A stretch of 64,000 nucleotides of DNA from an uncultured Phascolarctobacterium sp. (GTDB lineage: Bacteria; Bacillota; Negativicutes; Acidaminococcales; Acidaminococcaceae): assembly GCF_937920985.1 (NCBI RefSeq), contig NZ_CALDXR010000019.1, positions 31,268 through 95,267 of the forward strand. The letters are read 5' to 3'. How positions within the stretch are numbered: the first letter of the stretch is position 1; each line of letters opens with the position of its first letter. This document shows positions 15,092 to 51,965 of the stretch, piece after piece. Made by a program: the position numbers and the translations under genes. The notes below the pieces were generated by a model, which worked only from the letters and a program-made list of their open reading frames with translations, was not told where the DNA came from and made no database searches.

Positions 15092-15133
15092 AAAAAGTCC
15101 GATTTGTCATCACAGACGAATCGGACTTTTTAT
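15092..15133 (+). terminator. rho-independent terminator after putP
   Basis: AAAAAGTCCGATT...AATCGGACTTTTT hairpin plus a T-run. Confidence 0.8.
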
Positions 15134-15258
15134 ATTCTCAGCAAAATTTCAAGCTAATTTTACCCAAAGAGGCAAAAGCATAGCATTTTCCTCTCAATCA
15201 TATTATAATAAAAGTGACCAATAAATTTGCTTAATACATTATGTGAGGAGGTTCTGCC

Positions 15259-15852
15259 ATGCGTACTTTTCTGCCATTAGCCTTTTGGTACTGGCTCTAT
15301 AATCAGCTCTTCTTCTTTTTGGGGGCATTGGGCTTTTTTGTAATTCATTTTCTTGTTGCTTTCATCGGCTTCGGCGGCATGGATACTCTTGCCAGCGCTA
15401 TTTTGACAACACTTTATGCATTTATTCTTTACAAGCTCTTCGGGCGTTTTCTCTGGCGCAACAGGCTACAGCAATATAGTTTTAGCAGTACCACTCTCAT
15501 ATATGCCTCATTGCTGCCGCTGATTTTAGGCAGCGTCGTTCTCACCGCCAGCTTTGCCATAGCAGACGGCAAAATCTATAACACCATGACCGCTATGCCT
15601 GTGCTCGCAGCCATCAATCTCAGCCTTTCCTACCTGCCGCTTGCCAAAAGCGTCTGGACAATGCTCATTCTAGGCAGCATCTTCAACCTCTTTACGCTTA
15701 TCTGCTTCTGGCGCTACTGCCGCAAGTATCTGCAGCAGGAAATTCCCTGGCTGAGGCTACTCATACCACTGGCTATCTGTCTGGTAATCTGCACCATCAT
15801 TATCTATGGCATAACGATTACGTATCTGCCTGATGATAAAGCGGGAAGATGA
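15259..15852 (+). CDS. hypothetical integral membrane protein (197 aa)
   Basis: ORF with GAGGAGG RBS and about 6 hydrophobic helices. No family recognised. Confidence 0.55.
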   Translation: MRTFLPLAFWYWLYNQLFFFLGALGFFVIHFLVAFIGFGGMDTLASAILTTLYAFILYKLFGRFLWRNRLQQYSFSSTTLIYASLLPLILGSVVLTASFAIADGKIYNTMTAMPVLAAINLSLSYLPLAKSVWTMLILGSIFNLFTLICFWRYCRKYLQQEIPWLRLLIPLAICLVICTIIIYGITITYLPDDKAGR

Positions 15853-16280: not shown

Positions 16281-16694
16281 ATGTTATCAATGTATCCTGC
16301 GTGCTTTTATAAAGAAAAAGACGGACAATACACCGTAATTTTTCCTGACCTTAACCACCTCGCAACCTGTGGTACGGATTTACAAGATGCTATGAAAATG
16401 GCAACAGACTGCCTTGCCGGCTTTCTTTACGAAGCAAAGCTCAGCAATGAAGCTGTTCCGGAACCATCTGAATTAAACACTATTGACGTTAACGAAGAAT
16501 ATAGCGATTACGCAGAAGCCTTTGTTAATATAGTAAGTGTTGATGTAGAAGCATATGCCAAAGAGCACTTTACCAAAGCAGTCAAAAAAACTCTCACCAT
16601 CCCCAAATGGTTAAATGATGCGGCGATTGCCAAAAAGCTGAACTTCTCCAAAATTTTACAGGATGCTCTCAAGCACGAGCTCAATATCGGATAA
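16281..16694 (+). CDS. hicB: type II antitoxin HicB
   Basis: 137 aa, 4 nt after hicA. YPACFYKEKDGQYTVIFPDLNHLATCGTDLQDAMKMATDCL HicB N-domain plus a C-terminal DNA-binding tail. Confidence 0.85.
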   Translation: MLSMYPACFYKEKDGQYTVIFPDLNHLATCGTDLQDAMKMATDCLAGFLYEAKLSNEAVPEPSELNTIDVNEEYSDYAEAFVNIVSVDVEAYAKEHFTKAVKKTLTIPKWLNDAAIAKKLNFSKILQDALKHELNIG

Positions 16695-16697
16695 AGC

Positions 16698-16742
16698 AAA
16701 AATCACAACCGGTTACATATATAACCGATTGTGATTTTTTAT
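16698..16742. terminator. bidirectional hairpin terminator between hicB and aguB
   Basis: AATCACAACCGGTTA...TAACCGATTGTGATT flanked by an A-run and a T-run. Confidence 0.75.
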
Positions 16743-16756
16743 TATAGTTTCAATAT

Positions 16757-17635
16757 TTACTTACCGGCAATTTTACCGTAGCATTCCGGTCTGCGATCGC
16801 GGAACAATCCCCAGCTCAGTCTGTCCTCAGCCAAGGCTGCCAAGTCATACTCCGCATAAAGAATCTCTTCCTGATCACGCGATGCGTCCTGCACAAGCGC
16901 ACCGGTACCGTCGGTCATAAAGGAAGAGCCGTAGAACAGCAGTGAGGACTGCTGGCCTGCATTGCCTTCGCAGGGCTCCACAGTTTCCAGACCGATGCGG
17001 TTTGCTGCTACCACAGGCATCAGATTGGCTGCGCTATGGCCTTGCATAACACGGCGCCAATGCGGCATGCTGTCGCAGTCTAAGATAGGCTCGGAGCCAA
17101 TCGCCGTCGGATAGAACAAAAGCTCTGCTCCGTTCAGCGCCAGGCAACGTGCTGTCTCAGGGAACCATTGGTCCCAACAGATACCGATACCGACACGGCC
17201 ATACTTGGTATTGAAAACCGTAAAGCCGCTGTTACCCGGTTTAAAGTAAAATTTTTCCTGATAAAAATGATCGTCAGGAATATGTGTTTTGCGATAAACG
17301 CCTAAAATCTCACCGTCAGCATCAATGCAGGCGATGGAATTATATAATTCGTTGACATCACGCTCAAAGAAGCTGATAGGCAGAACGATATTCAGCTCCT
17401 TTGCCAAACGCTTGCCCATCTGCACCGCAGGATTTTCTTCCGTAGGCAGTGCATACTGATAGAAATCATAGCGACGCTGCTGGCAGAAATACGGACGCTC
17501 CCACAGCTCCGGCAGCAGAATAATCTGCGCACCGTTCGCTGCAGCTTCGCGTACCAGCGCTTCAGCGTGCTGCAAATTTTCTTCTACGGTCGGCGCACAG
17601 CGCATCTGCACTGCTGCCACCTTTACCTTGCTCAT
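16757..17635 (-). CDS. aguB: N-carbamoylputrescine amidase
   Basis: CN-hydrolase family with VAAVQM..., ICWDQWFPE (catalytic Cys). ATG 17635 overlaps the aguA stop (ATGA). The track start 17641 is a GTG 2 codons upstream. Confidence 0.85.
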   Translation of the reverse strand: MSKVKVAAVQMRCAPTVEENLQHAEALVREAAANGAQIILLPELWERPYFCQQRRYDFYQYALPTEENPAVQMGKRLAKELNIVLPISFFERDVNELYNSIACIDADGEILGVYRKTHIPDDHFYQEKFYFKPGNSGFTVFNTKYGRVGIGICWDQWFPETARCLALNGAELLFYPTAIGSEPILDCDSMPHWRRVMQGHSAANLMPVVAANRIGLETVEPCEGNAGQQSSLLFYGSSFMTDGTGALVQDASRDQEEILYAEYDLAALAEDRLSWGLFRDRRPECYGKIAGK

Positions 17636-18765
17636 AAGCACACTCCCTTCGGAATTTGCTGTGTAATGCAGTGAATATTGCCGCCACCGGTCAAAATTGC
17701 CCGCGCCGGTATCTGCACTACCTTACGCTCCGGACAGAGCTTGGCAAGAATTTCCGCCGCCAGCGCATCGCTGCCCGCATTCTCACCGCCAAAGGCAGGC
17801 ACTACAACACTGTCATTACTGAAATAAAAGTTTACATACGAAGCTGCCAGACGTTCACCTGCTTCGCGCATATCCTCGCCTTCAACAAAGTCGAAGCCTG
17901 CTACCTCGTCTTCTGTGATGCACACCGGCACCGCAGGAACAGGCAGCTTATGCACGATGATTTTGCGCCCCTTAGCATCCGTCAGCTGCTCCAAAGCATC
18001 CAGGCTTGCCTTGCTCAAAGCATACTGCGGATCAGCCTCGTTATCGGTCCAAGCCAGAATTACTTCACCCGGACGTATAAATGCACACACATTATCTACA
18101 TGCTCGTTGGTTTCATCGTTATAAATACCGCGCGGAATCCACAAAACCTTTTCCACGCCCAGGTAAGTCTTAAGCTTTTGTTCAATCTGCTCCTTCGACA
18201 GGTCAGGATTGCGTCCTGCACTCAGCAGGCAGGCCTCCGTCACCAATGCCGTACCCTCGCCGTCGCAGTGAATAGAACCGCCCTCCAGCACGAAGGGAAC
18301 AGCATCATACAGGGCAGTACCATAATGCTCCGCAAACTTTTCCGCAAAAGCATCGTCCTGCTCATAATCGGGATACAGGCCGTCTACCTCGCCGCCCCAG
18401 GCATTGAAGCGCCAGTTCACACCGCGCAGCTCGCGTCCCTGTGCGCCGTCGCGCACAACAAAAGTCGGGCCGATGTCACGCGCCCAGCTGTCATCCGTTT
18501 CCATAGCAACCAGCTCAACATTGGCGACACCTGCAAGATATTTCTGCGCCACAGCAAAGTGCTTAGCACCGCAGATAACATAAACCTTTTCGCTCGCCGC
18601 AATCGCCTTAATCACAGCCGTAAACGCTTCGCAGGCCGCCACTGCGCCAAAGCTCCAGGAGCCCGGACGCTGCGGCCACACGATAATGCAGCCGTCATGC
18701 GATTCGTATTCGCCGGGCATGTGAAAGCCGTCAGCAGCGGGAGTAAAGTTTTTCTCTAACATCAT
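17632..18765 (-). CDS. aguA: agmatine deiminase
   Basis: 377 aa with a C-terminal GGGNIHCITQQ catalytic Cys motif. Its start overlaps the nspC stop. Confidence 0.9.
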   Translation of the reverse strand: MMLEKNFTPAADGFHMPGEYESHDGCIIVWPQRPGSWSFGAVAACEAFTAVIKAIAASEKVYVICGAKHFAVAQKYLAGVANVELVAMETDDSWARDIGPTFVVRDGAQGRELRGVNWRFNAWGGEVDGLYPDYEQDDAFAEKFAEHYGTALYDAVPFVLEGGSIHCDGEGTALVTEACLLSAGRNPDLSKEQIEQKLKTYLGVEKVLWIPRGIYNDETNEHVDNVCAFIRPGEVILAWTDNEADPQYALSKASLDALEQLTDAKGRKIIVHKLPVPAVPVCITEDEVAGFDFVEGEDMREAGERLAASYVNFYFSNDSVVVPAFGGENAGSDALAAEILAKLCPERKVVQIPARAILTGGGNIHCITQQIPKGVCL

Positions 18766-26291: not shown

Positions 26292-26376
26292 TGGTGCGAG
26301 TGACAGGAATCGAACCTGCACGCCGAAAGGCGCTAGATCCTAAGTCTAGTGCGTCTGCCAGTTCCGCCACACTCGC
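26292..26376 (-). tRNA. tRNA-Leu (anticodon UAG), CCA encoded
   Basis: Reverse complement GCGAGTG...CTAGA-CTTAGGA-TCTAG..., long variable arm, GGTTCGATTCC T-loop, CACTCGC-A-CCA. Confidence 0.9.
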
Positions 26377-26385
26377 ATATAGAAT

Positions 26386-26415
26386 ATTATATCATAACAA
26401 GAACATCTATGGCAA
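26386..26415 (-). promoter_or_regulatory. possible internal promoter for tRNA-Leu
   Basis: Minus strand TTGCCA, 18-nt spacer, TATAAT, lying between the internal terminator and tRNA-Leu. Confidence 0.4.
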
Positions 26416-26428
26416 CTGTCCATGTAAA

Positions 26429-26461
26429 CAAAAAGCCGTCCTTCTTTCGAAGAACGGCCTT
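26429..26461 (-). terminator. hairpin terminator between tRNA-Lys and tRNA-Leu
   Basis: Minus strand AGGCCGTTCTTC-GAAA-GAAGGACGGCT followed by TTTTG. Confidence 0.6.
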
Positions 26462-26468
26462 AAATTCG

Positions 26469-26544
26469 TGGTGATCCACCCGAGACTCGAACTCGGGACA
26501 CCCTGATTAAAAGTCAGGTGCTCTACCAACTGAGCTAGTGGATC
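26469..26544 (-). tRNA. tRNA-Lys (anticodon UUU), CCA encoded
   Basis: GATCCACTAGCTCAGTTGGTAGAGC...CCTGA-CTTTTAA-TCAGG...GTTCGAGTC...GTGGATC-A-CCA. Confidence 0.9.
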
Positions 26545-26546
26545 AT

Positions 26547-26622
26547 TGGCTGGGGCGGCTGGACTCGAACCAACGCATGCGGGAGTCAAAGTCCCGTGCC
26601 TTACCGACTTGGCTACGCCCCA
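26547..26622 (-). tRNA. tRNA-Gln (anticodon UUG), CCA encoded
   Basis: TGGGGCGTAGCCAAGTCGGTAAGGC-ACGGGA-CTTTGAC-TCCCG...GGTTCGAGTCC...CGCCCCA-G-CCA. Confidence 0.9.
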
Positions 26623-26664
26623 AGCTTATTAGTGGTTATTCAGATTCATCCAAATCTGAAAAGG

Positions 26665-26741
26665 TGGGGTGACTGGTGGGAGTCGAACCCACGCGTAACG
26701 GAGCCACAATCCGCCGTGTTAACCACTTCACCACAGCCACC
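26665..26741 (-). tRNA. tRNA-His (anticodon GUG) with extra 5' G, CCA encoded
   Basis: GGTGGCTGTGGTGAAGTGGTTAACAC-GGCGGA-TTGTGGC-TCCGT...GGTTCGACTCC...CCA. Confidence 0.9.
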
Positions 26742-39182: not shown

Positions 39183-40760
39183 TTAAAATGGATTTTGCCA
39201 AGGCATTACTGTATTCCAGTCATCGCTTTCTTCATATGGTCCTAATTCCCTTCCTTCATGCCTTATCTGTATTCTTTGACCATATTCATTGGTTGCATTC
39301 TCATAGATTGATGTATTTCTAGGAATATACTTATAACCGTTAATCCAGATTCCCAAAACATTTCCAGACTCTTCCGCCTGCATTGTTATACGAATATTTG
39401 CCGGTAATTCCAATTGCCTTGCTTTAGCACGATTCTCCGAAGAAACAATCCTATCGTAAACAACTTCATAAGAAATTTTTCCATCAAGATTTTTGGCGGT
39501 AGGAACTTTTTTACGTGCAAAATTCAGCTTATAATATTCATGCATAATATCATAAGGCAGAAATGTTTTCGTTAAAGCTATAGCTTCAGCTAAAGATACC
39601 TGTTTTTCATCTCGCAACTTAGCTAAATCCAGGAAAATGACAAAGACATAATTACTTTTATCTGCACGACTCATGCTTTCTATAGACAGCAAACATTTTT
39701 TGCCATTTATACCATATTTTTCATTTGTACTCGTCTTATTAAAATAAACAGCTTCCTCAATGAACTTCTTGCCAAAGGTCAGCATATCATCATAATTGTC
39801 TAAAAGCCGCGGATGTTCAGAAGCCGACAATAACTCCCAGCTTTTTTCTAAATACGGTGCTTCCTTAGGTGATTGATGCCAATTTGCAGGTTTCCATTCC
39901 GTAAATTTATAGTTATTGTCCAATCGTCCGCCTAACTGATTCAGCAGTATCGCAATGCGTATATTCTTTACTCGGTTGTTTGTATCTGCTTCAAATCTTA
40001 TCGTTATACTTCCCGGATAGCCATGTACCATATACTTAGATTGATATTTTTCTTTTAAATGATATCTGATATCATAATACCTTTTATTATTTGCAGCACT
40101 CAAATAATCTGCACACTTGGTTTCAGCAAGCTCATAATACTCGTCCATGATTTCCCAAGGGATAAATGTTTCCGCTATATCTACTGCTTCATCAATCTTA
40201 ATATTATTTGTTTCCTGCGCATTAGAAAGATAAATTTGAATATCCCTTACTTTAGCATCGTCATCTTGAGAATCTGTAAATATATTCTCAGGCACTGTTT
40301 CAAAACAAAGAACAGTCTTATCATCGTATTTTGAAGAATCTAGCTTAACAATCCGTCCCTGTCCCTCGTAAAATCTTTTCACATCAGCTCTGGAAGAAAA
40401 TAGTTTAGGATGATTGGCTTTAGTAATTAATTCCTTTACTTCATTTTTTGGAGGCACAACAGATGACGAAACATCTACCTTGTTTGCCAAAAACATACAA
40501 CTGCTAAATAACATAATAAAGCCAACAAAAACAAACAGCAGATTTCTTAAGCACCCTCCTTTGGCCTGAGGAGGCTCTTCTTCATAATCATTTGTATAAT
40601 ACATCGAATCATCGAAATTAATATTATAGTTATAGATAATATAGTTTCCATCATTTGCAAGAACATATTTTGTTCCGCAATGTCTGCAGGTGTATATATT
40701 GTCCTGATAACTAAAATCACTGCTGCCGCAGTTTTCGCAAACCAGTTTTTTTAATTCCAT
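39183..40760 (-). CDS. hypothetical zinc-ribbon / single-pass membrane protein with an internally duplicated exo-domain (525 aa)
   Basis: N-terminal CENCG...CRHCG zinc ribbon, TM LLFVFVGFIMLFSSCMFLA, and two related ~200-aa modules (..AVDIAETFIPWEIMDEYYEL.. and ..AIALTKTFLPYDIMHEYYKL..). Markedly lower G+C than its neighbours. Confidence 0.6.
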   Translation of the reverse strand: MELKKLVCENCGSSDFSYQDNIYTCRHCGTKYVLANDGNYIIYNYNINFDDSMYYTNDYEEEPPQAKGGCLRNLLFVFVGFIMLFSSCMFLANKVDVSSSVVPPKNEVKELITKANHPKLFSSRADVKRFYEGQGRIVKLDSSKYDDKTVLCFETVPENIFTDSQDDDAKVRDIQIYLSNAQETNNIKIDEAVDIAETFIPWEIMDEYYELAETKCADYLSAANNKRYYDIRYHLKEKYQSKYMVHGYPGSITIRFEADTNNRVKNIRIAILLNQLGGRLDNNYKFTEWKPANWHQSPKEAPYLEKSWELLSASEHPRLLDNYDDMLTFGKKFIEEAVYFNKTSTNEKYGINGKKCLLSIESMSRADKSNYVFVIFLDLAKLRDEKQVSLAEAIALTKTFLPYDIMHEYYKLNFARKKVPTAKNLDGKISYEVVYDRIVSSENRAKARQLELPANIRITMQAEESGNVLGIWINGYKYIPRNTSIYENATNEYGQRIQIRHEGRELGPYEESDDWNTVMPWQNPF

Positions 40761-40990: not shown

Positions 40991-42109
40991 TTAGTTGCCG
41001 CGTACATACTCGCGCGGCACACGCGGGCTCACGTCGCAGATAATTTCATAGCAGATAGTATCTGCCCATTCCGCAACCAGCTCCATTGGCAGCTCACGAC
41101 CGCCAAACACGATGACCTCACTGCCCAGCTTGACGTCCGGAATATCCGTCACGTCCAGCATCGTCTGGTCCATGCATACGCGTCCGATAATCGGCGCCTT
41201 TTTGCCGTTGACCAGCATATACCCGCGGTTAGACAAGCGGCGGCTCACGCCGTCAGCATAACCGATAGGCACAGTAGCAATAACACTAGGTCTCGTCAAT
41301 GTATAGGTTCTGCCATAGCCGATGGTTTCACCGGGTGGCAGTGTTTTCACAAAAGCAACCTGCGTCTTCACAGTCATAACAGGCTCAAAATCCTTGTAGC
41401 AGTCAATCATATGCGCCGGGTGCAGGCCATACAGGGTGATTCCCTGACGCACCATATCCAGCTGATATTCCTGCAGCTCCGTCAGCGCAGCACTGTTGGC
41501 GATATGACGGATAGGGATATGCACTCCCTCCGCTTCAATCAGGCGCAGCGCCTCCTGAAAGCGTTCAAATTGATAGGCAGCATACTGCTTATCATCGGCG
41601 TCAGCAGTCGCAAAGTGACTGAATACGCCCTCGATATAGATACCGGGCAAGGACGCTGCCAGCTTGGCAAACCTGCCGGCATCACGCACATGCACACCGA
41701 TACGATGCATACCTGTATCAATCTTAATATGTATTTTAGCCTTCGTATGCAGCTTCAAAGCCGCCGCATTCAAAGCATATAAGCGTTCTTCATCAAATAC
41801 TGCATGGCTGATATCATAGCGCACACAGATTTCCGCAACCTCCGGCAGCATTGAGCCAAGCACCAGAATCGGTTTTTCAATACCGGCCTCGCGCAGCTTC
41901 ACGCCCTCCTGCAGGAGAGCTACCGCAAAAAAGTCTGCACCATTACGCGCTGCCTCCTGCGCTACGCGCACAGCGCCATGACCATAGGCATCTGCCTTGA
42001 CGACAGCACATAATTTGGTTGTCGGCTTCAGATTGGCCTTAGCCATCTGCACGTTATGTGCAATTGCATCTAAATTTATTTCTGCCCACGCACCACGTTG
42101 AATATGCAC
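40991..42109 (-). CDS. alr: alanine racemase
   Basis: 372 aa with a GTG start behind AGGAGGA. VVKADAYGHG PLP-lysine motif. Confidence 0.9.
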   Translation of the reverse strand: MHIQRGAWAEINLDAIAHNVQMAKANLKPTTKLCAVVKADAYGHGAVRVAQEAARNGADFFAVALLQEGVKLREAGIEKPILVLGSMLPEVAEICVRYDISHAVFDEERLYALNAAALKLHTKAKIHIKIDTGMHRIGVHVRDAGRFAKLAASLPGIYIEGVFSHFATADADDKQYAAYQFERFQEALRLIEAEGVHIPIRHIANSAALTELQEYQLDMVRQGITLYGLHPAHMIDCYKDFEPVMTVKTQVAFVKTLPPGETIGYGRTYTLTRPSVIATVPIGYADGVSRRLSNRGYMLVNGKKAPIIGRVCMDQTMLDVTDIPDVKLGSEVIVFGGRELPMELVAEWADTICYEIICDVSPRVPREYVRGN

Positions 42110-42265: not shown

Positions 42266-42409
42266 TTATTTTTTTATCGAGGTACAGTTTTTAGCATGCG
42301 GACAGCCGGAACAGCCGTTACAGCCGCCACGATACTTTTTGCCAAAATAACTGCGCACCGCCAAAATCACCAGTACCACTAACAAACCACCAATAATATA
42401 GGTTGCCAT
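42266..42409 (-). CDS. FeoB-associated Cys-rich small membrane protein
   Basis: 47 aa from ATG 42409. One TM (YIIGGLLVVLVILAV) followed by GGCNGCSGCPHAKNC. No feoB adjacent. Confidence 0.55.
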   Translation of the reverse strand: MATYIIGGLLVVLVILAVRSYFGKKYRGGCNGCSGCPHAKNCTSIKK

Positions 42410-42446
42410 CAGTCTGCTCACTTTACAATTATCATTATTCACTATA

Positions 42447-42692
42447 TTAGCCAAGAATTCTAGCTATAGTGTAAACTAAAATTGCCTTTTTTACAAATGA
42501 ATTCTTTGTGAAAGAGTGACACAGACAGTAAGAATTTTTGCCTGCCTTTATTTTGCTGTAATGGTTGGTCAGGTCTTTGTCCAGATCAATGTCGATGTTA
42601 CCACTGGCAATGATATTCGCATCAGCAGTCTCTTTATCGATCTGCGCAGTCAAAATCTGCCTGTCAAACTTGCGCACTGCATCATAATAATA
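42447..42692 (-). pseudogene. start-less hemagglutinin-repeat-like fragment at the left border of the AT-rich island
   Basis: Open frame ...RQILTAQIDKETADANIIASGNIDIDLDKDL... bounded upstream by TAG, with no ATG. Intermediate G+C. Confidence 0.35.
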
Positions 42693-42705
42693 CTAAGAAA
42701 CAACG

Positions 42706-43110
42706 CTACAATAATATATCATTTGTTATACCAAAAGCATATAATAATAGTAAAAGTAAAGTTGCAATATATATGTATATAATTTTTTCTTTAATTACAT
42801 TATATACTTTATAATCTTCTTCCTCAGCTTTTCCCATAAATATTTTTATCATCGCTCTTCTTTTTATTCCATATAGCATTAATGATAACCCAAGCCCCCA
42901 CAAAGGAAAAAAATACCTTATAAAGTCGCTAATATCAAAAATATCTAAAATACATCCTATCATAAAGATAACTATCATAAAAGCTCCAGCATTAAGCGAA
43001 ATAAAATACTTTTTATCACTTATTGATTTGAAATCCAAATTTTTACAGTAGACATTTATAATTCCTATCGTAAAAAAAGCTACCATTGTTGCTAAAATAT
43101 AACATCCCAT
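42706..43110 (-). CDS. small polytopic membrane protein (134 aa), immunity-like
   Basis: About 4 hydrophobic helices. Its ATG overlaps the stop (TAATG) of a short upstream frame ending ...GYDILATTDKEMGLK. Confidence 0.5.
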   Translation of the reverse strand: MGCYILATMVAFFTIGIINVYCKNLDFKSISDKKYFISLNAGAFMIVIFMIGCILDIFDISDFIRYFFPLWGLGLSLMLYGIKRRAMIKIFMGKAEEEDYKVYNVIKEKIIYIYIATLLLLLLYAFGITNDILL

Positions 43111-43183
43111 TATTTTAACCCCATCTCTTTATCAGTAGTTGCTAAAATATCGTAACCATCAAATATGACGCGGATATAAAATC

Positions 43184-43537
43184 TCAATTCAATAATATAA
43201 AGAATAAATCCACTTTATATTTTAGCTTAATCACTGAAACAATCCACGGAAAAACAAATACACCCAAAATAGTAAATAATATAAATCTTATAGTATTGCT
43301 AAATATAAATCTACGTTTCATTAATTCTAATTGATCTTTGCTTATTATGTATTTTTGTTCTAACATCTTTTTAAATTCCACATGGATATTCATCCAAACG
43401 TAAGCTAACATTAACAATATTAATTTTATTGGGAAATACTATTTCCATAATGGAACACTAACTGGAACATCGCACATTACAACATATACGAAGTATAAGA
43501 CTAAATAATAAAATAATAAAATTTTTATTTTCCGCAT
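43184..43537 (-). pseudogene. homologue of the 123-aa membrane protein (45729-46100), interrupted by an in-frame TAG (43439-43441)
   Basis: ATG 43537 MRKIKILLFYYLVLYFVYVVMCDVPVSVPLWK-TAG-YFPIKLILLMLAYVW... The track lists only the 3' part (43184-43417). Confidence 0.6.
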
Positions 43538-43539
43538 GA

Positions 43540-43937
43540 TCAATTGTCCTTTTCAACTAAGTCATATAAATTCTTTATATCCATGCCTAATACTAAAGGA
43601 TCTAATAATACTTCTGCTTTACTACGTTCTATTGAATCAGTTGCAACTTTATTCTCGCAATTTAAATTTATCTTTATTTTACCACTCTCTATTTTTCAGT
43701 GCTGAAATAACAACATACTTAAAATCAACTAACTCTTTAGCTTTTTCCTTCTCTTCTGTTGTAATATCTTGAAATAATACCGCCTTTAAGGTCAGTGTTT
43801 TCACCTACATTAATCTTAAAGCCATCTTTGCCTGCGTAAATACCGCTTTGGTCTGTAACGCTTTCATATTTACTATCAACATTATCCTTGCTTACATTGC
43901 CACTAATTCCAGCAAAATCAGCTTTGATATTCCTCAA
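43540..43937 (-). pseudogene. CdiA/FhaB-like FHA-2/pretoxin stub plus frameshifted C-terminal (toxin-tail) remnant
   Basis: ...ADFAGISGNVSKDNVDSKYESVTDQSGIYAGKDGFKINVGENTDLKGGII..., then two further frames (..EEKEKAKELVDFKYVVISALKNRE.., ..GKIKINLNCENKVATDSIERSKAEVLLDPLVLGMDIKNLYDLVEKDN*). No ATG. Confidence 0.6.
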
Positions 43938-44442
43938 GATTATCCATTATTTTTTTAATTATACCATCAAATTGAGAATCAAAGTCTTCCCTCTTTATTT
44001 TAAATTCAAAACCACTTACAGTATTACCGAATGATTTAGTTATTCTGTCACGTTCAGGCATTGCAATTTCATATTCTTTCAATTCTTCTCTATAAATGAC
44101 CTCAATAAGATAGTGCATATTAAAAAAATGATTCCATATTTTATATTTTGTTTTTTTAAATGGATCAACAAATTCTTCTTTATCATATTTGTAATTTTCT
44201 AAGCTAAGCATTAGGCATCTAAATACTCTTTCTTTCAATGATTTAATATCAACATTTTCAATAATACTACCCATGCTCCTACTAAATCCAATACTTGTAA
44301 CATGCAATGTCAAAATAGATATTTCACCTGTGTTTTTTTCTATATATATGTTTAATAATCCTTTCATTTTGCCACCTACTCTACAATAGCGATATTTGTA
44401 TTATTTTCGGCAATCAGGTCTGCTTTTTCTGCTTCACTAGCT
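43770..44442 (-). repeat. direct repeat copy 1 (stub / 149-codon ORF / stub cassette)
   Basis: Blocks 43831-44020 and 44311-44442 are near-identical to 46746-46935 and 47226-47357 at a constant offset of 2915 nt. The core is diverged but has the same length. Confidence 0.8.
43918..44367 (-). CDS. 149-aa cytoplasmic hypothetical protein, copy 1 (immunity-like cassette ORF)
   Basis: Intact ORF with no TM and GTAGGTGG upstream. Paralogue at 46833-47282. Confidence 0.6.
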   Translation of the reverse strand: MKGLLNIYIEKNTGEISILTLHVTSIGFSRSMGSIIENVDIKSLKERVFRCLMLSLENYKYDKEEFVDPFKKTKYKIWNHFFNMHYLIEVIYREELKEYEIAMPERDRITKSFGNTVSGFEFKIKREDFDSQFDGIIKKIMDNLEEYQS

Positions 44443-44450
44443 TTATAACC
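44376..44450 (-). pseudogene. 24-codon hemagglutinin-repeat stub (GYKASEAEKADLIAENNTNIAIVE*)
   Basis: Same sequence and frame as the 3' end of the 47291-47461 stub. Begins directly after the stop of the 147-aa ORF. Confidence 0.5.
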
Positions 44451-44882
44451 TTACCTACTTAAAGGTAAACCATATAAAAAAGATACTATCTGATCACGAC
44501 AATCAACAAACAATAAAGAATATACATCTCTACTATCATCAAAAATCAATAAAACCTTACCTTTTTTACATATTGTTTTCTTTGCATTTGACTCTATTAT
44601 TATCCAACCATTTTTATTGATACTTTCCTTTAACTGTTCAGATATATCTATATTTTTGCAACTCAAAACACAGTTTAAAGTACAATCTCCTAAAATATAT
44701 CTTTGCGTTTCGAGCTTAACTACCTTTGCTTCAGTCGGCACACTCAAATGAATCAATTGCAAATACATAGCTCTTTCTTTGTTTATTACATCATTGCTGT
44801 ATTTTAACAAAGCATTTGAATATACCAATACTGCAGCACAAAACAAACTTAAAACTGCTGTTACAATAAACTGTTTCTTCAT
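44451..44882 (-). CDS. signal-anchored small protein (143 aa from ATG 44882)
   Basis: MKKQFIVTAVLSLFCAAVLVYSN N-terminal hydrophobic segment. GGGGGA RBS before the second ATG (the track starts at 44894). Confidence 0.5.
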   Translation of the reverse strand: MKKQFIVTAVLSLFCAAVLVYSNALLKYSNDVINKERAMYLQLIHLSVPTEAKVVKLETQRYILGDCTLNCVLSCKNIDISEQLKESINKNGWIIIESNAKKTICKKGKVLLIFDDSRDVYSLLFVDCRDQIVSFLYGLPLSR

Positions 44883-44896
44883 ATTATCCCCCATGT

Positions 44897-45313
44897 TTAC
44901 AGAAGCGTTACCATTATATTGTACTTATGAATATCTTTTATGTATTGTATTCTATACTCTAATCTGTTATCTATATATACTCTTGAGGTATCTCCATTTC
45001 GCTTGCTCAATTTATATCCGTCGTGCTTATTAAAAATTGCTTCCGAAAGCTCCTCAAATCCCATATTAGAATTAAAGCTCATATTAATCACTGCCACTCT
45101 ACCACTACTCTTACCAGGATTAAAAGAAATGTAGAAATTACTTATATCACTTTTAGGTAAGTCTAACCTTAAAACCTTTTCAAGAGCAATATCCATATGT
45201 GAAATAGCGTAATCCTCCTCTACCAAATTTCTAGTATTTGGGGAAAAAATGCATAAACAAAATACAATTACCTCTGTTAGCAAAATATATACTATCGACT
45301 TATGTATTACCAT
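44897..45313 (-). CDS. signal-anchored small protein (138 aa)
   Basis: N-terminal IVYILLTEVIVFCLCIF hydrophobic segment and AAGGAG RBS. No family recognised. Confidence 0.5.
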   Translation of the reverse strand: MVIHKSIVYILLTEVIVFCLCIFSPNTRNLVEEDYAISHMDIALEKVLRLDLPKSDISNFYISFNPGKSSGRVAVINMSFNSNMGFEELSEAIFNKHDGYKLSKRNGDTSRVYIDNRLEYRIQYIKDIHKYNIMVTLL

Positions 45314-45728
45314 AACCGAACTCCTTTACATCACCATGTAATCGAATAATCAACAATTGCACCTACTGAAAATCCAACCCCAATCATTAATATTTTATAA
45401 TTATCAGGTGTAATACCATAATAAACACCGTCAAATGCTTCTAACTTTCCGCCAACAGAAACTCCCCTCAATATGTAAAGCCTTTGCTACTGACTAGCGA
45501 CCTTGTTTCGAAACTATACTACGCTTACATTCAAACCACAGGAAGTTGTACGTTCACCAATCACAAGCTCTCACCTGCGATAGAACTATTTCTGAAATTT
45601 TTTTAAGAATGATGGAGTAAGCAAAAATGCCAACAACAGCTTTTGACAAAGACAAAGACAAATTATAGCCGCTTTTGCAGTCTTCATATCAACATTAAGG
45701 ATACCCTATTGGGAGCGGAATAGTACTT

Positions 45729-46100
45729 TTAGTTTGTAACCAAAAAACTTAAGTTTACTCCATATACATCACGTATTAAGAGTAATATATATGGTGCTAT
45801 AAATACAAAAAAAACTGCAATCAACATAAAAATCAAGGTGTTTTGATAAACAAACTTTTTTCCTAAATGTTCAAACTTGATTTTATCTTTATCTCTATAA
45901 TACATCATTTTTTTAGCATCATTAAAAATTTTAGTCCATAAAAATGCCATAAATATAAGCAATAACTTTATTGGAAAATATGCTTTCCACGCCTCTTCAT
46001 TTATACCACACTCTTTATTCGGTAAGATTATATATATAAGATAGAATATAGAATAGAATATCATGTAGTTCTTTATGTAGCGACTAGTTATCTGTTTCAT
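45729..46100 (-). CDS. 123-aa polytopic membrane protein, immunity-like (intact family member)
   Basis: Three hydrophobic helices and the W-K-A-YFPI motif shared with 43184-43537 and 46365-46478. Its start lies inside the 3' end of the upstream toxin-tail frame. Confidence 0.55.
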   Translation of the reverse strand: MKQITSRYIKNYMIFYSIFYLIYIILPNKECGINEEAWKAYFPIKLLLIFMAFLWTKIFNDAKKMMYYRDKDKIKFEHLGKKFVYQNTLIFMLIAVFFVFIAPYILLLIRDVYGVNLSFLVTN

Positions 46101-46374
46101 GATTTTGTTTTAACTCCTCTATGGTTTTTACATCCATTAAAATTCCTATATCATTTAACATCTCTTTTACTCTTATTCTTTCAAAATCATCTGTAATTAC
46201 TTTATCCCAATTTATATTATCAACTCTCCCTTTCTTAATTGCAATAGCGAAGGAACTAGCATCGCCATATATACTAATTACTTTAGCTGTTATATCTAAT
46301 TTATTATAAAAATTATTTCCTAAATTATCTTTAATAACATTATATTTTTGGCTATCGTTATCAATCAGATCATG
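46084..46374 (-). pseudogene. 96-codon open frame without a start codon: toxin C-terminal-domain-like remnant
   Basis: HDLIDNDSQKYNVIKDNLGNNFYNKLDITAKVISIYGDASSFAIAIKKGRVDNINWDKVITDDFERIRVKEMLNDIGILMDVKTIEELKQNHETDN*. Its tail resembles the copy-1 remnant tail. Not in the ORF track. Confidence 0.45.
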
Positions 46375-46478
46375 TTAGCTATAGGAAAATATCGCTGCCA
46401 CAATGGAATATTAATCATATCATTGTAATAAAACCCAAGAATCATTATAAACAGAAAATATATTATTACTCTTCTCAT
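46365..46478 (-). pseudogene. truncated 37-codon member of the small membrane protein family
   Basis: MRRVIIYFLFIMILGFYYNDMINIPLWQRYFPIANMI*. ATGA overlap with the preceding remnant frame. Confidence 0.45.
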
Positions 46479-46852
46479 TTGTTTAAGATACCACCTGCTG
46501 TTTTTATATAAAATAATAGACCTGCATAATCTAATGTATCTTTCAATTTTTCTTGTTCAAAGTTGATTGTTACTTATATTAGTAGTATTGCCAAAGACAT
46601 CTTCTCTCTTTAAAGTAACAGTATGATTTTCAAGAGATATTTCTTTGATAAGGCATTAATGTACCTATACTATTTTCTTCATATTGTGCTGGAAATTACC
46701 TCGCCTTCTAAATCAGTATTTTTTCCAATGCCAAAGCCACCTTTACCTGCGTAAATACCGCTTTGGTCTGTAACGCTTTCATATTTGCTATCAACATTAT
46801 CCTTGCTAACATTGCCACTAATTCCAACAAATTTAGCTTTGATATTCCTCAA
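46475..46852 (-). pseudogene. CdiA/FhaB-like stub plus multiply frameshifted C-terminal remnant (copy 2)
   Basis: ...KFVGISGNVSKDNVDSKYESVTDQSGIYAGKGGFGIGKNTDLEGEVISSTI*, then three more short frames ending ...DYAGLLFYIKTAGGILNK*. Confidence 0.55.
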
Positions 46853-47357
46853 GATTATCCATTATTTTTTTAATTATACTATCAAATTGAGAATCAAAGT
46901 CTTCCCTCTTTATTTTAAATTCAAAACCACTTACTGCACTTCCGAAAGACTTGGTAGCTTTTTTCCTTTGAAGCATTTTTATATAATATTCTTGGTTTTC
47001 TTCTATATAAGTCACCTCAACAATATAGTGCATATTAAAAAAACGATTCCATGTTTTGTATTTTGTGAGTTTAAATGGATCAAGATTTTCTTTATCTTCA
47101 CTTTTATATTCAGCTAAACTGAATTTTATGCATTTAATTACTGTCTCCTTTAAAGATTCATTGCTGATATTATCGATAATTTTTCCTATGCTTCTGCTAA
47201 ACCCAATAGTAGTAACGTGATATATCAAAATAGATATTTCACCTGTGTTTTTTTCTATATATATGTTTAATAATCCTTTCATTTTGCCACCTACTCTACA
47301 ATAGCGATATTTGTATTATTTTCGGCAGCAAGGTCGGCTTTTCCTGCTTCACTGGCT
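46685..47357 (-). repeat. direct repeat copy 2
   Basis: See copy 1. Same offset on both flanks, so there is no indel within the ORF. Confidence 0.8.
46833..47282 (-). CDS. 149-aa cytoplasmic hypothetical protein, copy 2
   Basis: The first 19 aa are identical to copy 1. The last 40 aa are near-identical (3 differences). About 40 of the central ~90 residues differ. Confidence 0.6.
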   Translation of the reverse strand: MKGLLNIYIEKNTGEISILIYHVTTIGFSRSIGKIIDNISNESLKETVIKCIKFSLAEYKSEDKENLDPFKLTKYKTWNRFFNMHYIVEVTYIEENQEYYIKMLQRKKATKSFGSAVSGFEFKIKREDFDSQFDSIIKKIMDNLEEYQS

Positions 47358-47461
47358 ACGTTGCCACCTTTTATATTAATATCGTTACCACTTGCAATGC
47401 TGGTAGCAAAAGTATTTTCCCTATTGCTAAAATCACTGCGGTATACTACAATAAGTCTAAA
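47291..47461 (-). pseudogene. 56-codon start-less hemagglutinin (Fil_haemagg-like) repeat stub at the right border of the island
   Basis: FRLIVVYRSDFSNRENTFATSIASGNDINIKGGNVASEAGKADLAAENNTNIAIVE*, bounded upstream by TAA, with no start codon. Confidence 0.55.
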
Positions 47462-47485: not shown

Positions 47486-48124
47486 ATGCAATTACCGGAA
47501 AAAAAATACATTGCCTCCTTTGATATTGACGCACAAAACACCTTCACCCCGGTCTGCCCCGACGAGCTGCCGGTTTCCGAAGGCGACACCATCGCTCCCG
47601 AGCTGAACGCCCAGGCGCAATTCGCCAGCCTGCGCCTCGCTTCCCGCGACGCGCACAGCCGTTGCGCGCTCTGGATCAGCGACGCTGAGCACGCTCCGCT
47701 CACTCCCATCAGCGGCTATCCCGATCTTGATATCCGTTGGCCGGCACACGCTATTATCGGCACCAAAGGCTTTGACTTCATCGACGGCCTCGATGAAGCG
47801 GCTTATGATTATCAGGTGTTCAAGGGCATTGAAGCAGATAAGCATCCCTACGGCGCCTGCTACCATGACCTGAAGGACACTCTTTCCACCGGTGCCATCG
47901 AATATCTGCGCTGCCATGGTATTACCACCGTTATCTGCGGCGGTCTGGCAACCGATTATTGTGTAAAAAACACTGTACTGCAGCTGAAGGCTGCTGGCTT
48001 CGATGTTATCCTGAACAAGGCTGCCTGCCGCGGCATTGCTCCCGAAACCATCGCAAGCGCTATGCAGGAAATGGCTGCTGCCGAAGTAAAATTCGTAGAA
48101 TGCGCCAAGGAATTAGCTGAATAA
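47486..48124 (+). CDS. pncA: nicotinamidase/pyrazinamidase (isochorismatase family)
   Basis: 212 aa. FDIDAQNTF, WPAHAI.GT.G, GLATDYCV catalytic Cys motif. Confidence 0.75.
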   Translation: MQLPEKKYIASFDIDAQNTFTPVCPDELPVSEGDTIAPELNAQAQFASLRLASRDAHSRCALWISDAEHAPLTPISGYPDLDIRWPAHAIIGTKGFDFIDGLDEAAYDYQVFKGIEADKHPYGACYHDLKDTLSTGAIEYLRCHGITTVICGGLATDYCVKNTVLQLKAAGFDVILNKAACRGIAPETIASAMQEMAAAEVKFVECAKELAE

Positions 48125-49452: not shown

Positions 49453-50262
49453 TTAACCAAGATATTGCAAAATTTCCTTAGCATGCTGTAAAATAATATC
49501 CGGCTTAATAGAACCATTTTCCACATCTTCCATGGTTGCCTCACCGGTCAGCACCATCACAGAAAGAATATCGTTGTTCAGGCCAAAGGCAATATCTGTC
49601 GCCAGGCGGTCACCCACCATAGCAATTTCCTCTTTTTTATAACCGGTTTTATCCAAAACCACATCTACCATATACTTATAAGGCTTACCGAAAATCAGCT
49701 GCGGCTTTTTGCCGGTAGCAGTTTTAATCAGCTCCAGCATTGCACCGGTATCAGGAATGAACTCGCCGCCTTCAATCGGACAGCGTACATCAGGATGCGT
49801 TGCAACATACGGCACACCCTTGTCAATCAGGCGGCAGGCGGTAGTAAGGCGGTCATAGGTAAGTGTCTGGTCAAAGCCGACAACTACATAATCGGCGCCC
49901 TCCTCCAGCGTATTCGTCAGCGTAAAGCCTGCTTCCTCAATCGTTGCCAACAGCTGCGGCGTTCCCAGCACAAACAGCTTCGCACCGGGTTTGTTCTTCT
50001 GCATCCAGTTGGTCAGTGCGTCTGATGAAATCAGGATATTCTCACGCGTAACCGGCACGCCCAGTCCATTCATTTTCTGCACATAATGCTCGTGGCTGCG
50101 GGAAGAATTATTCGTCAGCAGATAATATTCCTTGCCTGCTGCCTTTAATTTATCAAAAAAGCCTTCCATACCAGGAATCAGTTCGTTGCCCAAATTAATT
50201 GTTCCGTCCATATCAAAAAGAAAACATTTAATTTTCGCTAAGCGAGCGTAATCATAAGTCAT
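49453..50262 (-). CDS. HAD-IIA family phosphatase (NagD-like)
   Basis: 269 aa. FLFDMDGT motif I, LTNNS motif II, MVGDRLATDI motif IV. Confidence 0.8.
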   Translation of the reverse strand: MTYDYARLAKIKCFLFDMDGTINLGNELIPGMEGFFDKLKAAGKEYYLLTNNSSRSHEHYVQKMNGLGVPVTRENILISSDALTNWMQKNKPGAKLFVLGTPQLLATIEEAGFTLTNTLEEGADYVVVGFDQTLTYDRLTTACRLIDKGVPYVATHPDVRCPIEGGEFIPDTGAMLELIKTATGKKPQLIFGKPYKYMVDVVLDKTGYKKEEIAMVGDRLATDIAFGLNNDILSVMVLTGEATMEDVENGSIKPDIILQHAKEILQYLG

Positions 50263-50448
50263 GCCTTATCCTCCAAACTTAAATATAATAATATTATAAA
50301 GCATTTGCCTTTTTTGTGCTACAATAGACAAGGAAGAAAATCTGAAGCTCAAAAGGATGTTGACAGACATGAAAAATGATTGACAAAAAAATCTTTAGAT
50401 TACTTCTGACCTATGTGCTGCTTGCTGATAGCTAATTACGGCAAATCT

Positions 50449-50544
50449 AGAAAAATATGCATTTTCTACAGAAAAACATCCTGAAAATCTGCATTTTTCT
50501 CTCTGAAATACCATGAAAATCTGCATTTTTGTTGAAGGTATGTA
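50449..50544 (+). repeat. three iteron-like direct repeats with 32-bp periodicity (core GAAAAT-N-TGCATTTT)
   Basis: Cores at about 50450-50466, 50483-50499 and 50515-50531. The third abuts the -35 of the downstream promoter. Confidence 0.7.
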
Positions 50545-50560
50545 ATAATACTGTTATAAT
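50532..50560 (+). promoter_or_regulatory. promoter of the DUF4143 ATPase gene
   Basis: TTGAAG, 17-nt spacer, TGtTATAAT (extended -10). Followed by the palindrome AAGCATAA-AC-TTATGCTT (50563-50580). Confidence 0.6.
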
Positions 50561-50594
50561 AAAAGCATAAACTTATGCTTTGAGGAGGATGAAA

Positions 50595-51893
50595 ATGCTT
50601 AAGCGGAAGTTTTTGGATGCACTTGTACAGTGGAAAGAAAATAAACAGCAAGAATGTTTATTAGTCAAAGGTGCACGCCAAATAGGTAAAACTTATATCA
50701 TAGATTATTTTGGACGGAAGCATTATCGTAGTTATATTTATATAAATTTTATCGAGATGCCAAAGTTCAAAGAAATATTTTTGGGTGATTTGTCAGCAGA
50801 TGAGATATATAAAAGAATTTCTTTGCTGCTTCCTGAAAGCCGCTTTCTTGAGCATGAAACATTGATTTTTTTAGATGAAATCCAAGCATGTCCTGAGGCA
50901 AGAACGGCATTGAAATTTTTAGCGCTGGATAATCGTTATGATGTTATTGCTTCTGGTTCACTTTTAGGTATCAGCTATAAAGAGGTCGACTCTATTCCTG
51001 TTGGCTATGAGAAGCAGATTACAATGTATGCTCTGGACTTTGAGGAATATTTATGGGCCTTGGGTTACACTGATGAGAAAATAGCGATTTTGCAAGATTA
51101 TTTTTTGCTGAAAGAAGCAGTACCGCCTGCTGTACATGAGCAGATGTTAAAGCTGTTGCGTGAGTACATGGCGGTAGGCGGTATGCCTGCTGTAGTTAAT
51201 AAGTTTGTCGAAACGCAGCATTTTGGCCTTGTACAGCAAGAACAGGAGAAAATACTTGCCAGTTATCAGGAGGACGTTTCTAAATATGCCAGCAATACAG
51301 AGAAGCCTAAGGTAAAAAATTGCTATTTTTCTATTCCTAAGCAGTTGGCTAAAGAAAATAAAAAATTTCAGTTCTCTGTTGTAGAGAAAAAGGGAACGGC
51401 TCGTAAATTCGAAAACAGCATTGAGTGGCTACGGGATGCAAATCTTGTTTATTTGTGTTATAACGTTAGTACGCCTGCTTTTCCTTTAGCTGCTTATGAA
51501 AAAGAGGATATGTATAAGTTGTATTTAGCAGATATTGGCCTGCTCATATCTATGTATGGGTATGATATGAAAAAGGCTATTATTGATGATACGCTTACCG
51601 GAGCGGCTAAGGGAGGTATTTATGAAAATCTCATTGCTGATATGTTGGTAAAGGGAGGACATAAGCTAAACTATTTCCGATCTCAAAATGGTGAAACAGA
51701 AATAGAGTTTCTTATTACTAAGGAGGCGCAGATTATTCCTGTGGAAGTGAAGGCTAATAGGGGGTCTACCGTATCGTTGAATAGAATCTTAGAGCAGACA
51801 CAGATTCCTTATGGCTATAAGCTTATTTCCGGGAATGTTGGCGTTAATGACAAAAAAATAGTATTGCCATTGTATATGGCTATGTTTTTATAA
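50595..51893 (+). CDS. AAA ATPase with DUF4143 domain (AAA_14/DUF4143 family)
   Basis: 432 aa from ATG 50595 behind GAGGAGGA. VKGARQIGKT Walker A and LIFLDEIQ Walker B. Confidence 0.75.
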   Translation: MLKRKFLDALVQWKENKQQECLLVKGARQIGKTYIIDYFGRKHYRSYIYINFIEMPKFKEIFLGDLSADEIYKRISLLLPESRFLEHETLIFLDEIQACPEARTALKFLALDNRYDVIASGSLLGISYKEVDSIPVGYEKQITMYALDFEEYLWALGYTDEKIAILQDYFLLKEAVPPAVHEQMLKLLREYMAVGGMPAVVNKFVETQHFGLVQQEQEKILASYQEDVSKYASNTEKPKVKNCYFSIPKQLAKENKKFQFSVVEKKGTARKFENSIEWLRDANLVYLCYNVSTPAFPLAAYEKEDMYKLYLADIGLLISMYGYDMKKAIIDDTLTGAAKGGIYENLIADMLVKGGHKLNYFRSQNGETEIEFLITKEAQIIPVEVKANRGSTVSLNRILEQTQIPYGYKLISGNVGVNDKKIVLPLYMAMFL

Positions 51894-51965
51894 GCTGTTG
51901 CATTTTTTGTTTACCCACAAACTGTGATAAAAAGCCAATTTAAAGATATTATAGGGAGTTAAACC

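Follow-up and report, generated by a model that had tools for sequence, protein, structure and literature searches.

Orphan cdiA-CT/cdiI modules consist of start-less fragments of cdiA, the toxin gene of contact-dependent growth inhibition (CDI), followed by expressible cdiI immunity genes, and both their description and the idea that they form a "repertoire of immunity genes" come from Poole et al. (2011; PMC3150448). In E. coli EC93 and EC869, Yersinia and Neisseria these modules lie downstream of cdiBAI, their cdiA 3′ fragments keep pre-toxin homology, the small immunity gene follows with its own ribosome-binding site within a few bases, and the modules occur in arrays and are shared between strains at different positions, with some fragments (Klebsiella variicola, Erwinia pyrifoliae) lacking the VENN motif (PMC3150448). 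A stand-alone case is the orphan islet of S. Typhi, an organism without cdi genes, which holds an EC869-type cdiI away from any cdi locus and is read, in the summary available in PMC9086364, as protection against the EC869-like toxins of competitors (Barretto and Fowler, 2020). Here we describe an AT-rich island of about 4.9 kb (42517-47405) between pncA and alr in a 64,000-nucleotide stretch of contig NZ_CALDXR010000019.1 (the window) from an uncultured Phascolarctobacterium. Very probably, the island consists of six orphan cdiA-CT/cdiI cassettes in a degenerate array that has no link to cdiBAI, and its immunity genes have probably been kept as protection against the CDI toxins of conspecifics.

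The features listed above for the known modules all recur in the island, with the exception of their location. Unlike those modules, the array lies between the housekeeping genes pncA and alr with no cdiB or cdiA in the window, every one of its toxin parts is non-functional, it includes a mid-gene piece of cdiA, and its host is a Negativicute, in which the CdiA boundary is ...SGTKNN(Y/F)L... instead of VENN, the equivalence of the two being our reading. The S. Typhi islet, as far as that summary describes it, is similar in having an EC869-type cdiI gene away from a cdi locus, and differs in that the island has, besides two diverged EC869-type cdiI genes, four more genes of the immunity type and a large number of cdiA relics, that the Phascolarctobacterium species has cdiBAI loci, some with the matching toxin (L065; L and P numbers are labels of related loci or contigs and of proteins used for comparison), and that there is no sequence-level relation between the two (10-13% identity in structural alignments). 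Since orphan modules and stand-alone orphan cdiI islets have already been described (PMC3150448, PMC9086364), the island is not a new kind of system. It is set apart from the known cases by its housekeeping-gene location, complete loss of toxin function, a new sequence family with the predicted CdiI(EC869) fold and the TKNN boundary.

The CdiA-CT/CdiI pairs of E. coli EC869/TA271 (4G6U) and Y. pseudotuberculosis YPIII (4ZQU) combine a Zn-dependent PD-(D/E)XK DNase with an immunity protein that neutralizes it by beta-augmentation. Toxin domains at three related loci (L021, L065, and L066) match the Pfam family CDI_toxin_EC869_like above threshold, and the predicted immunity protein ORF149 of the island models with the CdiI fold. 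Unlike the CdiI proteins of those pairs, ORF149 forms a small separate sequence family, and the likeness here is one of predicted fold and gene position. The acquired interbacterial defence clusters of Bacteroidales are, like the island, toxin-less and strain-variable sets of immunity genes in gut commensals that are thought to be protective, but they neutralize effectors of the type VI secretion system (T6SS) and ride on mobile elements with recombinases, while the island concerns CDI toxins. To our knowledge, CDI has been studied almost entirely in Proteobacteria. In Negativicutes, CDI and CdiA proteins of two-partner secretion (TPS) are known from comparative genomics only (PMC3482391, PMC8510554), and a literature search on CDI in Phascolarctobacterium gave incidental co-mentions and no paper. 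The island is a concrete case in an abundant human-gut commensal. In conspecific strains a DNase toxin of the EC869-like type is encoded by a complete cdiBAI, and this strain keeps, at a hypervariable site where it has no toxin itself, two immunity alleles that match and another four. Such a pattern is what strain-level arms races between toxins and immunities in the gut would produce, and the island also supplies candidate immunity modules, of two genes or of the membrane type, for toxins that are as yet unnamed.

CdiA fragments and toxin remnants

The island is made up of five start-less CdiA fragments (stubs) from three regions of the protein, toxin-tail remnants, and six intact and two broken small open reading frames (ORFs), and all of these lie on the minus strand, as do all ORFs of at least 100 codons, in agreement with the coding direction given in the original prediction. 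The parent reference is the 2711-aa CdiA of Phascolarctobacterium succinatutens CAG:287 (L015), which contains a TPS secretion domain and Fil_haemagg_2 repeats, is preceded by a 566-aa ShlB/POTRA transporter and is followed by a 141-aa ORF and then by more orphan fragments, one ending in a TatD DNase domain. When the TpsB and CdiA of this congener were compared with the window by tblastn, just four short CdiA pieces were recovered, corresponding to residues 1088-1139 (98% identity), 1689-1721 (85%) and, in two copies, 2169-2221 (66% and 73%), and no cdiB, full cdiA or TPS-domain trace was found in the 64 kb, which bears out the earlier statement that neither a TpsB transporter nor a full-length exoprotein is present. 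By sequence comparison, the stubs are genuine pieces of the filamentous haemagglutinin (FHA)-repeat, mid-protein and pretoxin regions of the CdiA of the species. The parental cdiB-cdiA is present in the species on other contigs, outside the window.

Stub 1 (47294..47405) is an FHA-repeat piece (about residues 1689-1721) with 85% amino acid and 87% nucleotide identity to L015 cdiA 6983-7089 and a weak Pfam match to Fil_haemagg_2 (E 0.0058). It ends in ...AENNTNIAIVE before its stop, while the L065 toxin ends in ...NINIKITIVE, which suggests a deletion reaching from the FHA repeats to the last cdiA codons, and stub 1 is probably joined to the final codons of an EC869-like toxin that was otherwise deleted. 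A shorter second copy of this piece, stub 1′ (44379..44450), precedes ORF149b and has 83% amino acid identity to residues 33-56 of stub 1 and 89-92% nucleotide identity to cdiA of L015, L019, and L021. The two pretoxin pieces are stub 2 (46682..46852; about residues 2169-2221), which overlaps the 3′ end of ORF149a and has 66% amino acid identity to L015 CdiA and is 50-72% identical to CdiA-like genes from Negativicutes and Proteobacteria in their pretoxin region, and stub 3 (43740..43937), with 73% amino acid identity to L015 CdiA residues 2169-2219 and 84-90% nucleotide identity to cdiA of L015 and L019. Stub 4 (42524..42692) is a mid-cdiA piece (residues 1088-1139) that breaks the cdiA order and closes the array on its 3′ side, with a nucleotide identity of 93.5-95.8% to cdiA of L015 and L019. 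Its match to cdiA breaks after ...KIKAGKN, and it adjoins sequence common to all strains upstream of the gene for a FeoB-associated protein.

The similarity of the stubs to hemagglutinin/CdiA families, as originally predicted, is far beyond chance, with stub 4 being 98% identical over 52 aa (E ~1e-25) to a genuine CdiA. The four peptides on which that prediction was built are present where they had been placed, although the pretoxin peptide ISGNVSKDNV..., said to occur twice, does so only approximately, as its second copy diverges after ...GIYAGK. The stubs are start-less in the sense that they follow in-frame stops and are without a TPS domain or signal sequence, but some of them hold chance TTG or GTG codons.

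A scan of 185,579 species genomes for the pattern of the stub alignment gave 49 loci, one group being from Phascolarctobacterium, Lucifera, Pectinatus, Dialister, and Avacidaminococcus, and a second from Enterobacterales, Cupriavidus, Massilia, Moraxella, and Cardiobacterium. A word-indexed homologue search with the pretoxin stub had returned only ORFs of 49-110 aa, and since full-length parents were later found by the genome scan, this outcome was due to gene calling and the word index rather than to absence. One of these short matches, P0035, runs on into '...TDLKGGIIFSEAEKDKNKISTGTLTYEDIK'. Its source, the metagenome contig L003, contains a long array of cdiA 3′ fragments with interleaved small ORFs, where each fragment keeps hundreds of codons of FHA repeats and where the many frameshifts are possibly assembly errors. 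The L003 array and the phage-type integrase gene that follows it directly lie within 1-15300 and 16582-17682 of the contig.

Every toxin-coding part in the island is truncated, internally deleted or frameshifted. Module 0 has no toxin part left, stub 1 being followed by ORF149a, and in module 1 the remnant (46478..46655) is internally deleted, frameshifted and broken by stops, with 'KEISLENHTVTLKRE...' aligning to the middle of a 468-aa orphan toxin of L019 and showing 57% identity to L066. Module 2 retains CT96 (46087..46374), the last 96 codons of a toxin of ~320 aa, with 95% identity to the C-terminus of the same L019 orphan cdiA-CT and 92% to L069. A homologue search with CT96 gave one fused fragment only, and P0129 is an in-frame fusion of the N-terminus of the module 1 immunity protein with the module 2 toxin tail, so that one deletion removed both halves. 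The module 3 tail (45334..45486) is a 51-codon, glycine-rich and hydrophobic C-terminus ending in ...DYSITW, with 41% identity to the C-terminal end of a 1140-aa CdiA fragment in L017, which ends in ...GDYSITW. The module 4 remnants (43543..43804) comprise two frames with two frameshifts, and the piece 'EEKEKAKELVDFKYVVISALKNREW' has 71% identity to the linker that follows TKNN in the L019 orphan toxin. Module 5 has a 34-codon frame (43113..43214), of which only the last codons, ...ATTDKEMGLK, resemble the end of a 117-aa glycine-zipper toxin fragment of L013 (...ADTDTQKGIR), a likeness seen by eye and without a computed score; the L013 fragment overlaps its immunity ATG in the same manner as module 5. 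A spacer of short broken frames (45557..45705) has 88-100% identity to L019, L052, L054, and L069, directly after the homologue of ORF123.

The conserved region of the CdiA proteins of Phascolarctobacterium runs up to ...A(S/A)SGTKNN(Y/F/E/D)..., after which the variable toxin begins (L019 6683-8089, L021 9803-11647, and L013 24-3521), and SGTKNN is apparently the local equivalent of the enterobacterial VENN boundary. Pfam does not call PT-VENN at the TKNN boundary of the relatives, and DUF637 is matched weakly. In the island, no [VT][EDK]NN or G[TM]K[NH]N motif is found in any minus-strand frame.

Immunity-type genes and their counterparts in relatives

Each of the six intact small ORFs has, at the level of sequence, a homologue in the immunity position behind a CdiA toxin in relatives. 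Within the island, toxin part and small ORF are separated by a stop/start overlap or a gap of 2-20 nt at 43110, 43537, 45313, 46100, 46478, and 47282, and the four such junctions that had been listed previously (TAATG at 43110, TGAtcATG at 43537, ATGA at 46478 and a 17-nt overlap at 46100) are all exactly as given. ORF123 and ORF134 are predicted to be polytopic membrane proteins and ORF138 and ORF147 to have one N-terminal transmembrane (TM) segment each, while ORF149 is predicted to be soluble. Searches of the small ORFs with Pfam, NCBIfam, and PADLOC gave nothing significant, which leaves a role in anti-phage defence unsupported.

ORF149a (46833..47282), with AGGTGG 6 nt upstream of its ATG, is intact and encodes a soluble 149-aa predicted CdiI of the EC869 DNase-toxin type, and ORF149b (43918..44367), with 71% identity to it, is a second intact paralogue of this type. 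AlphaFold2 models of ORF149a had a pLDDT of 82 with one alignment (A2) and a pLDDT of 92.3 and pTM of 0.88 with a wider one (A3). In Foldseek comparisons of these models with the PDB, the top five matches were all CdiI proteins of the EC869 family, namely 2gkp (NMB0488, on which a literature search found no paper), 4g6u_B and 4zqw_B (E. coli EC869/TA271), 4zqv (Y. kristensenii) and 4zqu_B (Y. pseudotuberculosis), with E values of 7e-5 to 2.5e-3, probability 1.0 and TM scores of 0.45-0.60, followed by the next match at E 0.046 and a TM score of 0.23. A search of 1.84 billion representatives with a profile of the ORF149 family gave only 24 clusters (50% identity), and none of them extended to a CdiI family already known. 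As modelled, ORF149 is a new sequence family with the predicted CdiI(EC869) fold.

The toxin that would be cognate to ORF149 is deleted in the window and is seen in relatives, where an EC869-like toxin domain lies directly upstream of the ORF149 homologue. In L021, a 614-aa orphan matches Pfam CDI_toxin_EC869_like (54 bits) and the ORF149 homologue begins 9 nt after its stop. A metagenome scan with this L021 toxin domain gave 16 loci, and three of them (L061, L064, and L065) have a complete cdiB, 94-96% identical to the TpsB of CAG:287, and a 2682-aa cdiA with TPS, Fil_haemagg_2 and CDI_toxin_EC869_like domains (Pfam check for L065, 50 bits). In the gut metagenome locus L065, with its complete cdiB-cdiA, a cdiI 91% identical to ORF149a is found 9 nt after the cdiA stop, and in L066-L069 the gene behind the EC869-like toxin domain is a cdiI with 88-90% identity to ORF149b. 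Across L065, L021, and L066-L069, PF21111 is matched at 50-63 bits and ORF149 homologues (44-91% identity) follow 8-9 nt later. The two types of EC869-like toxin are 88% identical and their immunities 68%, which is the pattern expected of diverging cognate pairs. P0133 (330 aa) has ~180 unrelated N-terminal residues fused to a complete ORF149-family domain (183-325); the N-terminal part resembles a transposase fragment by eye, and the fusion may be an artefact of gene calling or an insertion sequence next to cdiI.

The other immunity-type genes are predicted to encode membrane proteins. ORF123 (45729..46100) is an intact, two-TM predicted immunity protein cognate to CT96, and its counterparts in L019 and L069, with 95-98% identity, overlap the stop codon of the CT96-type toxin there. 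In L019 this CT96/ORF123 module lies downstream of a cdiA 3′ end, and in L069, which begins inside cdiA-like sequence, the CT96-type toxin (92%) and ORF123 (98%) stand just upstream of an EC869-like orphan, so that modules of the window recur in the context of orphan arrays. The module 4 membrane immunity gene (43187..43537) is a frameshifted (37 + 84 codons) paralogue of ORF123, with an identity of 33-38% when compared with ORF123 and the homologue of L019, and of 44% with L066 and L068, and that of module 1 (46368..46478) is cut after ~36 codons and matches, at 90-95% identity, the initial 62 residues of a 94-aa membrane ORF that is intact in L004 and L054. ORF134 (42706..43110), an intact and polytopic (3-4 TM) predicted immunity protein, has homologues in CdiA toxin/immunity arrays, directly after the toxin tail in L013 (4218-4625, 36.5% identity) and ~360 nt after a pretoxin/CT ORF in L003 (8183-8440, 35%), as well as in L009 (31%).

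Module 3 has a pair of genes in the immunity position. The first, ORF138 (44897..45313), is intact, has an N-terminal TM anchor and AAGGAG upstream, and is related over its full length (29% identity, E 4e-23) to a 138-aa ORF directly after the L017 CdiA, and the second, ORF147 (44451..44894), also intact and with an N-terminal TM anchor, has 34% identity to the second ORF (151 aa) after that CdiA. The start of ORF147 is probably its second ATG, giving 143 aa, the length at which its counterpart in L001 was called. Toxin tails trailed by two small single-TM proteins are seen in the window (44451-45313), in L017 (11336-12225), twice in L019 (10059-10905 and 12336-13203) and in L054 (13109-13865). 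Such pairing suggests two-component immunity, or an immunity protein together with an accessory protein. The toxins of these two-ORF modules are of a glycine-rich, probably membrane-acting class without a Pfam family.

Strain variation, selection and alternative readings

The content of the alr-pncA interval differs between strains and its length varies from 1.5 to 4.9 kb. Modules 0-5 and stub 4 are present in the window, L001 and L002, and the CAG:287 interval (L052) has modules 1-4, while L054 has modules 0-4 together with another two-gene immunity-like pair and a third copy of ORF149, and in the 1.5-kb interval of L004-L007 and L053 the only modules are 0 and 1, accompanied by a pretoxin stub of another kind. 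The sequences of L052 and L054 part from that of the window at 43818-43821, within stub 3. The two ORF149 repeat units are 96-100% identical at their ends and 66-72% in the core, and reciprocal mosaic ORF149 alleles are present. In seven independent contigs the island adjoins pncA and the FeoB-associated gene plus alr. A misassembled 3′ end of cdiBAI beside pncA is unlikely given the same pncA junction in six independent metagenome and genome contigs. The host of the array is P. succinatutens or a very close relative, NCBI having proteins named from uncultured Phascolarctobacterium that equal ORF149a and others, named from P. succinatutens, with 94-99% identity to it, and the flanking housekeeping proteins being 97-100% identical to those on other Phascolarctobacterium contigs.

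Between strains, the ratio of non-synonymous to synonymous substitution rates (dN/dS) is 0.08-0.40 for the intact ORFs (ORF123 0.08-0.22, ORF138 0.10-0.24, and ORF147 0.14-0.24) and 0.5-1.8 for the stubs, and the pooled counts of synonymous and non-synonymous changes are 20/10 in the intact ORFs versus 2/13 in the stubs (Fisher p = 0.0012). In the array of orphan cassettes envisaged here, homologous recombination at the conserved segments of cdiA would have displaced or captured the cassettes, and deletions at microhomologies would then have trimmed them. The toxin halves, being neither translatable nor secretable, would decay neutrally, and the cdiI genes would be kept by selection because they neutralize toxins from neighboring conspecific CDI+ strains, where ORF149a and ORF149b would block two EC869-like DNase variants and the membrane ORFs would block membrane-acting toxins.

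Several points weigh against this interpretation. The cdiBAI locus is known from contigs of other strains and not from this genome, the substitution counts underlying the dN/dS values are small, and ORF123 is not universally kept, with a stop in L054 and a broken frame in L052. A scan for promoters and terminators was no better than chance in AT-rich DNA (31 promoter-like sites versus 33.6 expected), and no named family includes the toxins that match modules 2, 3, and 5. The fold match of ORF149 is moderate (TM score 0.52-0.60, rmsd ~6 A, 10-13% identity), ORF149 has no Pfam or NCBIfam match and no sequence-level tie to any CdiI family, and phmmer and hmmsearch comparisons of ORF149 and two family profiles with PDB sequences returned no CdiI.

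A more specific proposal, which we put forward tentatively, is that the island is an integrase-free capture site for immunity genes, in which the cdiA stubs serve as homology anchors for recombination with the DNA of conspecific CDI+ strains. The FHA piece before and the pretoxin piece after each ORF149 would be such anchors, between which cdiI cassettes could be swapped or added. This would explain the conserved ends and variable core of the ORF149 units, the reciprocal mosaics and the shared point of divergence of two strains in stub 3. Were it true, strains would track the repertoire of toxins circulating in the gut population.

It is unlikely, in our view, that a full cdiBAI once stood between pncA and alr and decayed in place, leaving the ORFs as neutral leftovers without a current role. 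Such a history would account for the pieces from three parts of cdiA, including the mid-gene stub 4 of a kind rarely retained by orphan cassettes, and for immunity ORFs that are broken in some strains. The pieces, however, are not collinear with cdiA (1689-1721, 2169-2221, 1689-1721, 2169-2219, and 1088-1139), no trace of cdiB or of a TPS domain is left, immunity-type genes of at least six kinds occur, two of which are duplicated and have diverged in the core, the dN/dS of the intact ORFs is well below 1, unlike that of the stubs, and the cdiBAI of the species is located elsewhere, next to wecG and psd in L065.

Still less probable is a functional toxin reservoir of silent but usable cdiA-CT cassettes that could recombine onto a main cdiA and thereby switch its toxin, a model that was put forward for orphan modules (PMC3150448) and that would agree with the 81-90% nucleotide identity which stubs 2 and 3 keep to the cdiA pretoxin region and with strain breakpoints inside that region. 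No intact toxin is present in any cassette, since module 0 has none, that of module 1 is deleted and frameshifted, module 2 retains 96 of ~320 residues and module 3 no more than 51, two frameshifts interrupt that of module 4 and in module 5 the likeness to a toxin tail is confined to the final codons of a 34-codon frame, and the TKNN/VENN-equivalent boundary is gone. With all toxin parts truncated or frameshifted and this boundary lost, the array is an immunity-only relic and not a usable toxin reservoir, and the reservoir reading is largely refuted for this allele of the island.

The original prediction had left open whether the array was of the cdiA-CT or the rhs-CT type, and the CDI alternative is the one supported, by stubs of TPS proteins, ORFs in immunity position and the predicted CdiI fold. 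Another polymorphic-toxin system (Rhs/T6SS, MafB, or LXG proteins of the type VII secretion system) is highly improbable, since the layout of toxin tail and immunity gene with overlapping stop and start is common to all such systems but the stubs match (85-98%) TPS and Fil_haemagg_2 proteins beside a ShlB-type transporter and the Pfam scans that were run gave no domain of any other polymorphic-toxin family.

Island borders and neighboring features

On one side the island is bordered by pncA (Isochorismatase; 47486-48124, plus strand) and on the other by a gene for a 62-aa FeoB-associated Cys-rich protein (42266-42454, minus strand; Pfam 38 bits), beyond which lies alr (40991-42109, minus strand). 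The G+C content of the island is 0.293 (0.29 for 42524-47405), with 0.25-0.32 in 500-nt windows over 42.5-47.3 kb, compared with ~0.5 (about 0.53) in both flanks, 0.525 in alr and 0.549 in pncA, and the collapse in G+C that first drew attention to the region is therefore real, the two 60-nt counts given for it (16 and 29) being exact. No recombinase or mobility gene turned up in the island, although no search aimed at integrase or transposase genes was made, and a megablast of the island against plasmids gave no match. Rfam, tRNA, and tandem-repeat scans found nothing within or beside it, and with no tRNA nearby there is no tRNA-linked integration site. A tRNA cluster (Leu-tag, Lys-ttt, Gln-ttg, and His-gtg) at 26292-26740 of the window (minus strand) is unrelated to the island.

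Large orphan fragments of cdiA that have immunity genes and no cdiB nearby are also found between housekeeping genes in other Phascolarctobacterium species, for example in L021 (9803-12105), where they adjoin genes for a radical-SAM/BATS protein and an M20 peptidase, and in L011 (8612-11674), next to a Ppx/GppA gene. Dispersed orphan islands thus seem to be a genus-wide habit.

Two further AT-rich patches occur in the window. A 525-aa ORF (39183-40760, minus strand; G+C ~0.35) between alr and the inorganic pyrophosphatase gene (ppa) has an N-terminal CxxC zinc-ribbon, with weak Pfam and NCBIfam matches only, and a hydrophobic segment. This gene is missing in L004-L007 and L052, where alr adjoins ppa, and is therefore a second strain-specific insertion beside the island. 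The other patch (50250-51900, plus strand; G+C 0.30-0.40) contains a gene for a 437-aa AAA_14/DUF4143 ATPase (ORF 50580-51893), which sits between two HAD-hydrolase genes that adjoin in L004-L007, and a 32-nt tandem repeat of 2.5 copies (50452-50530) is found just upstream of this ORF.

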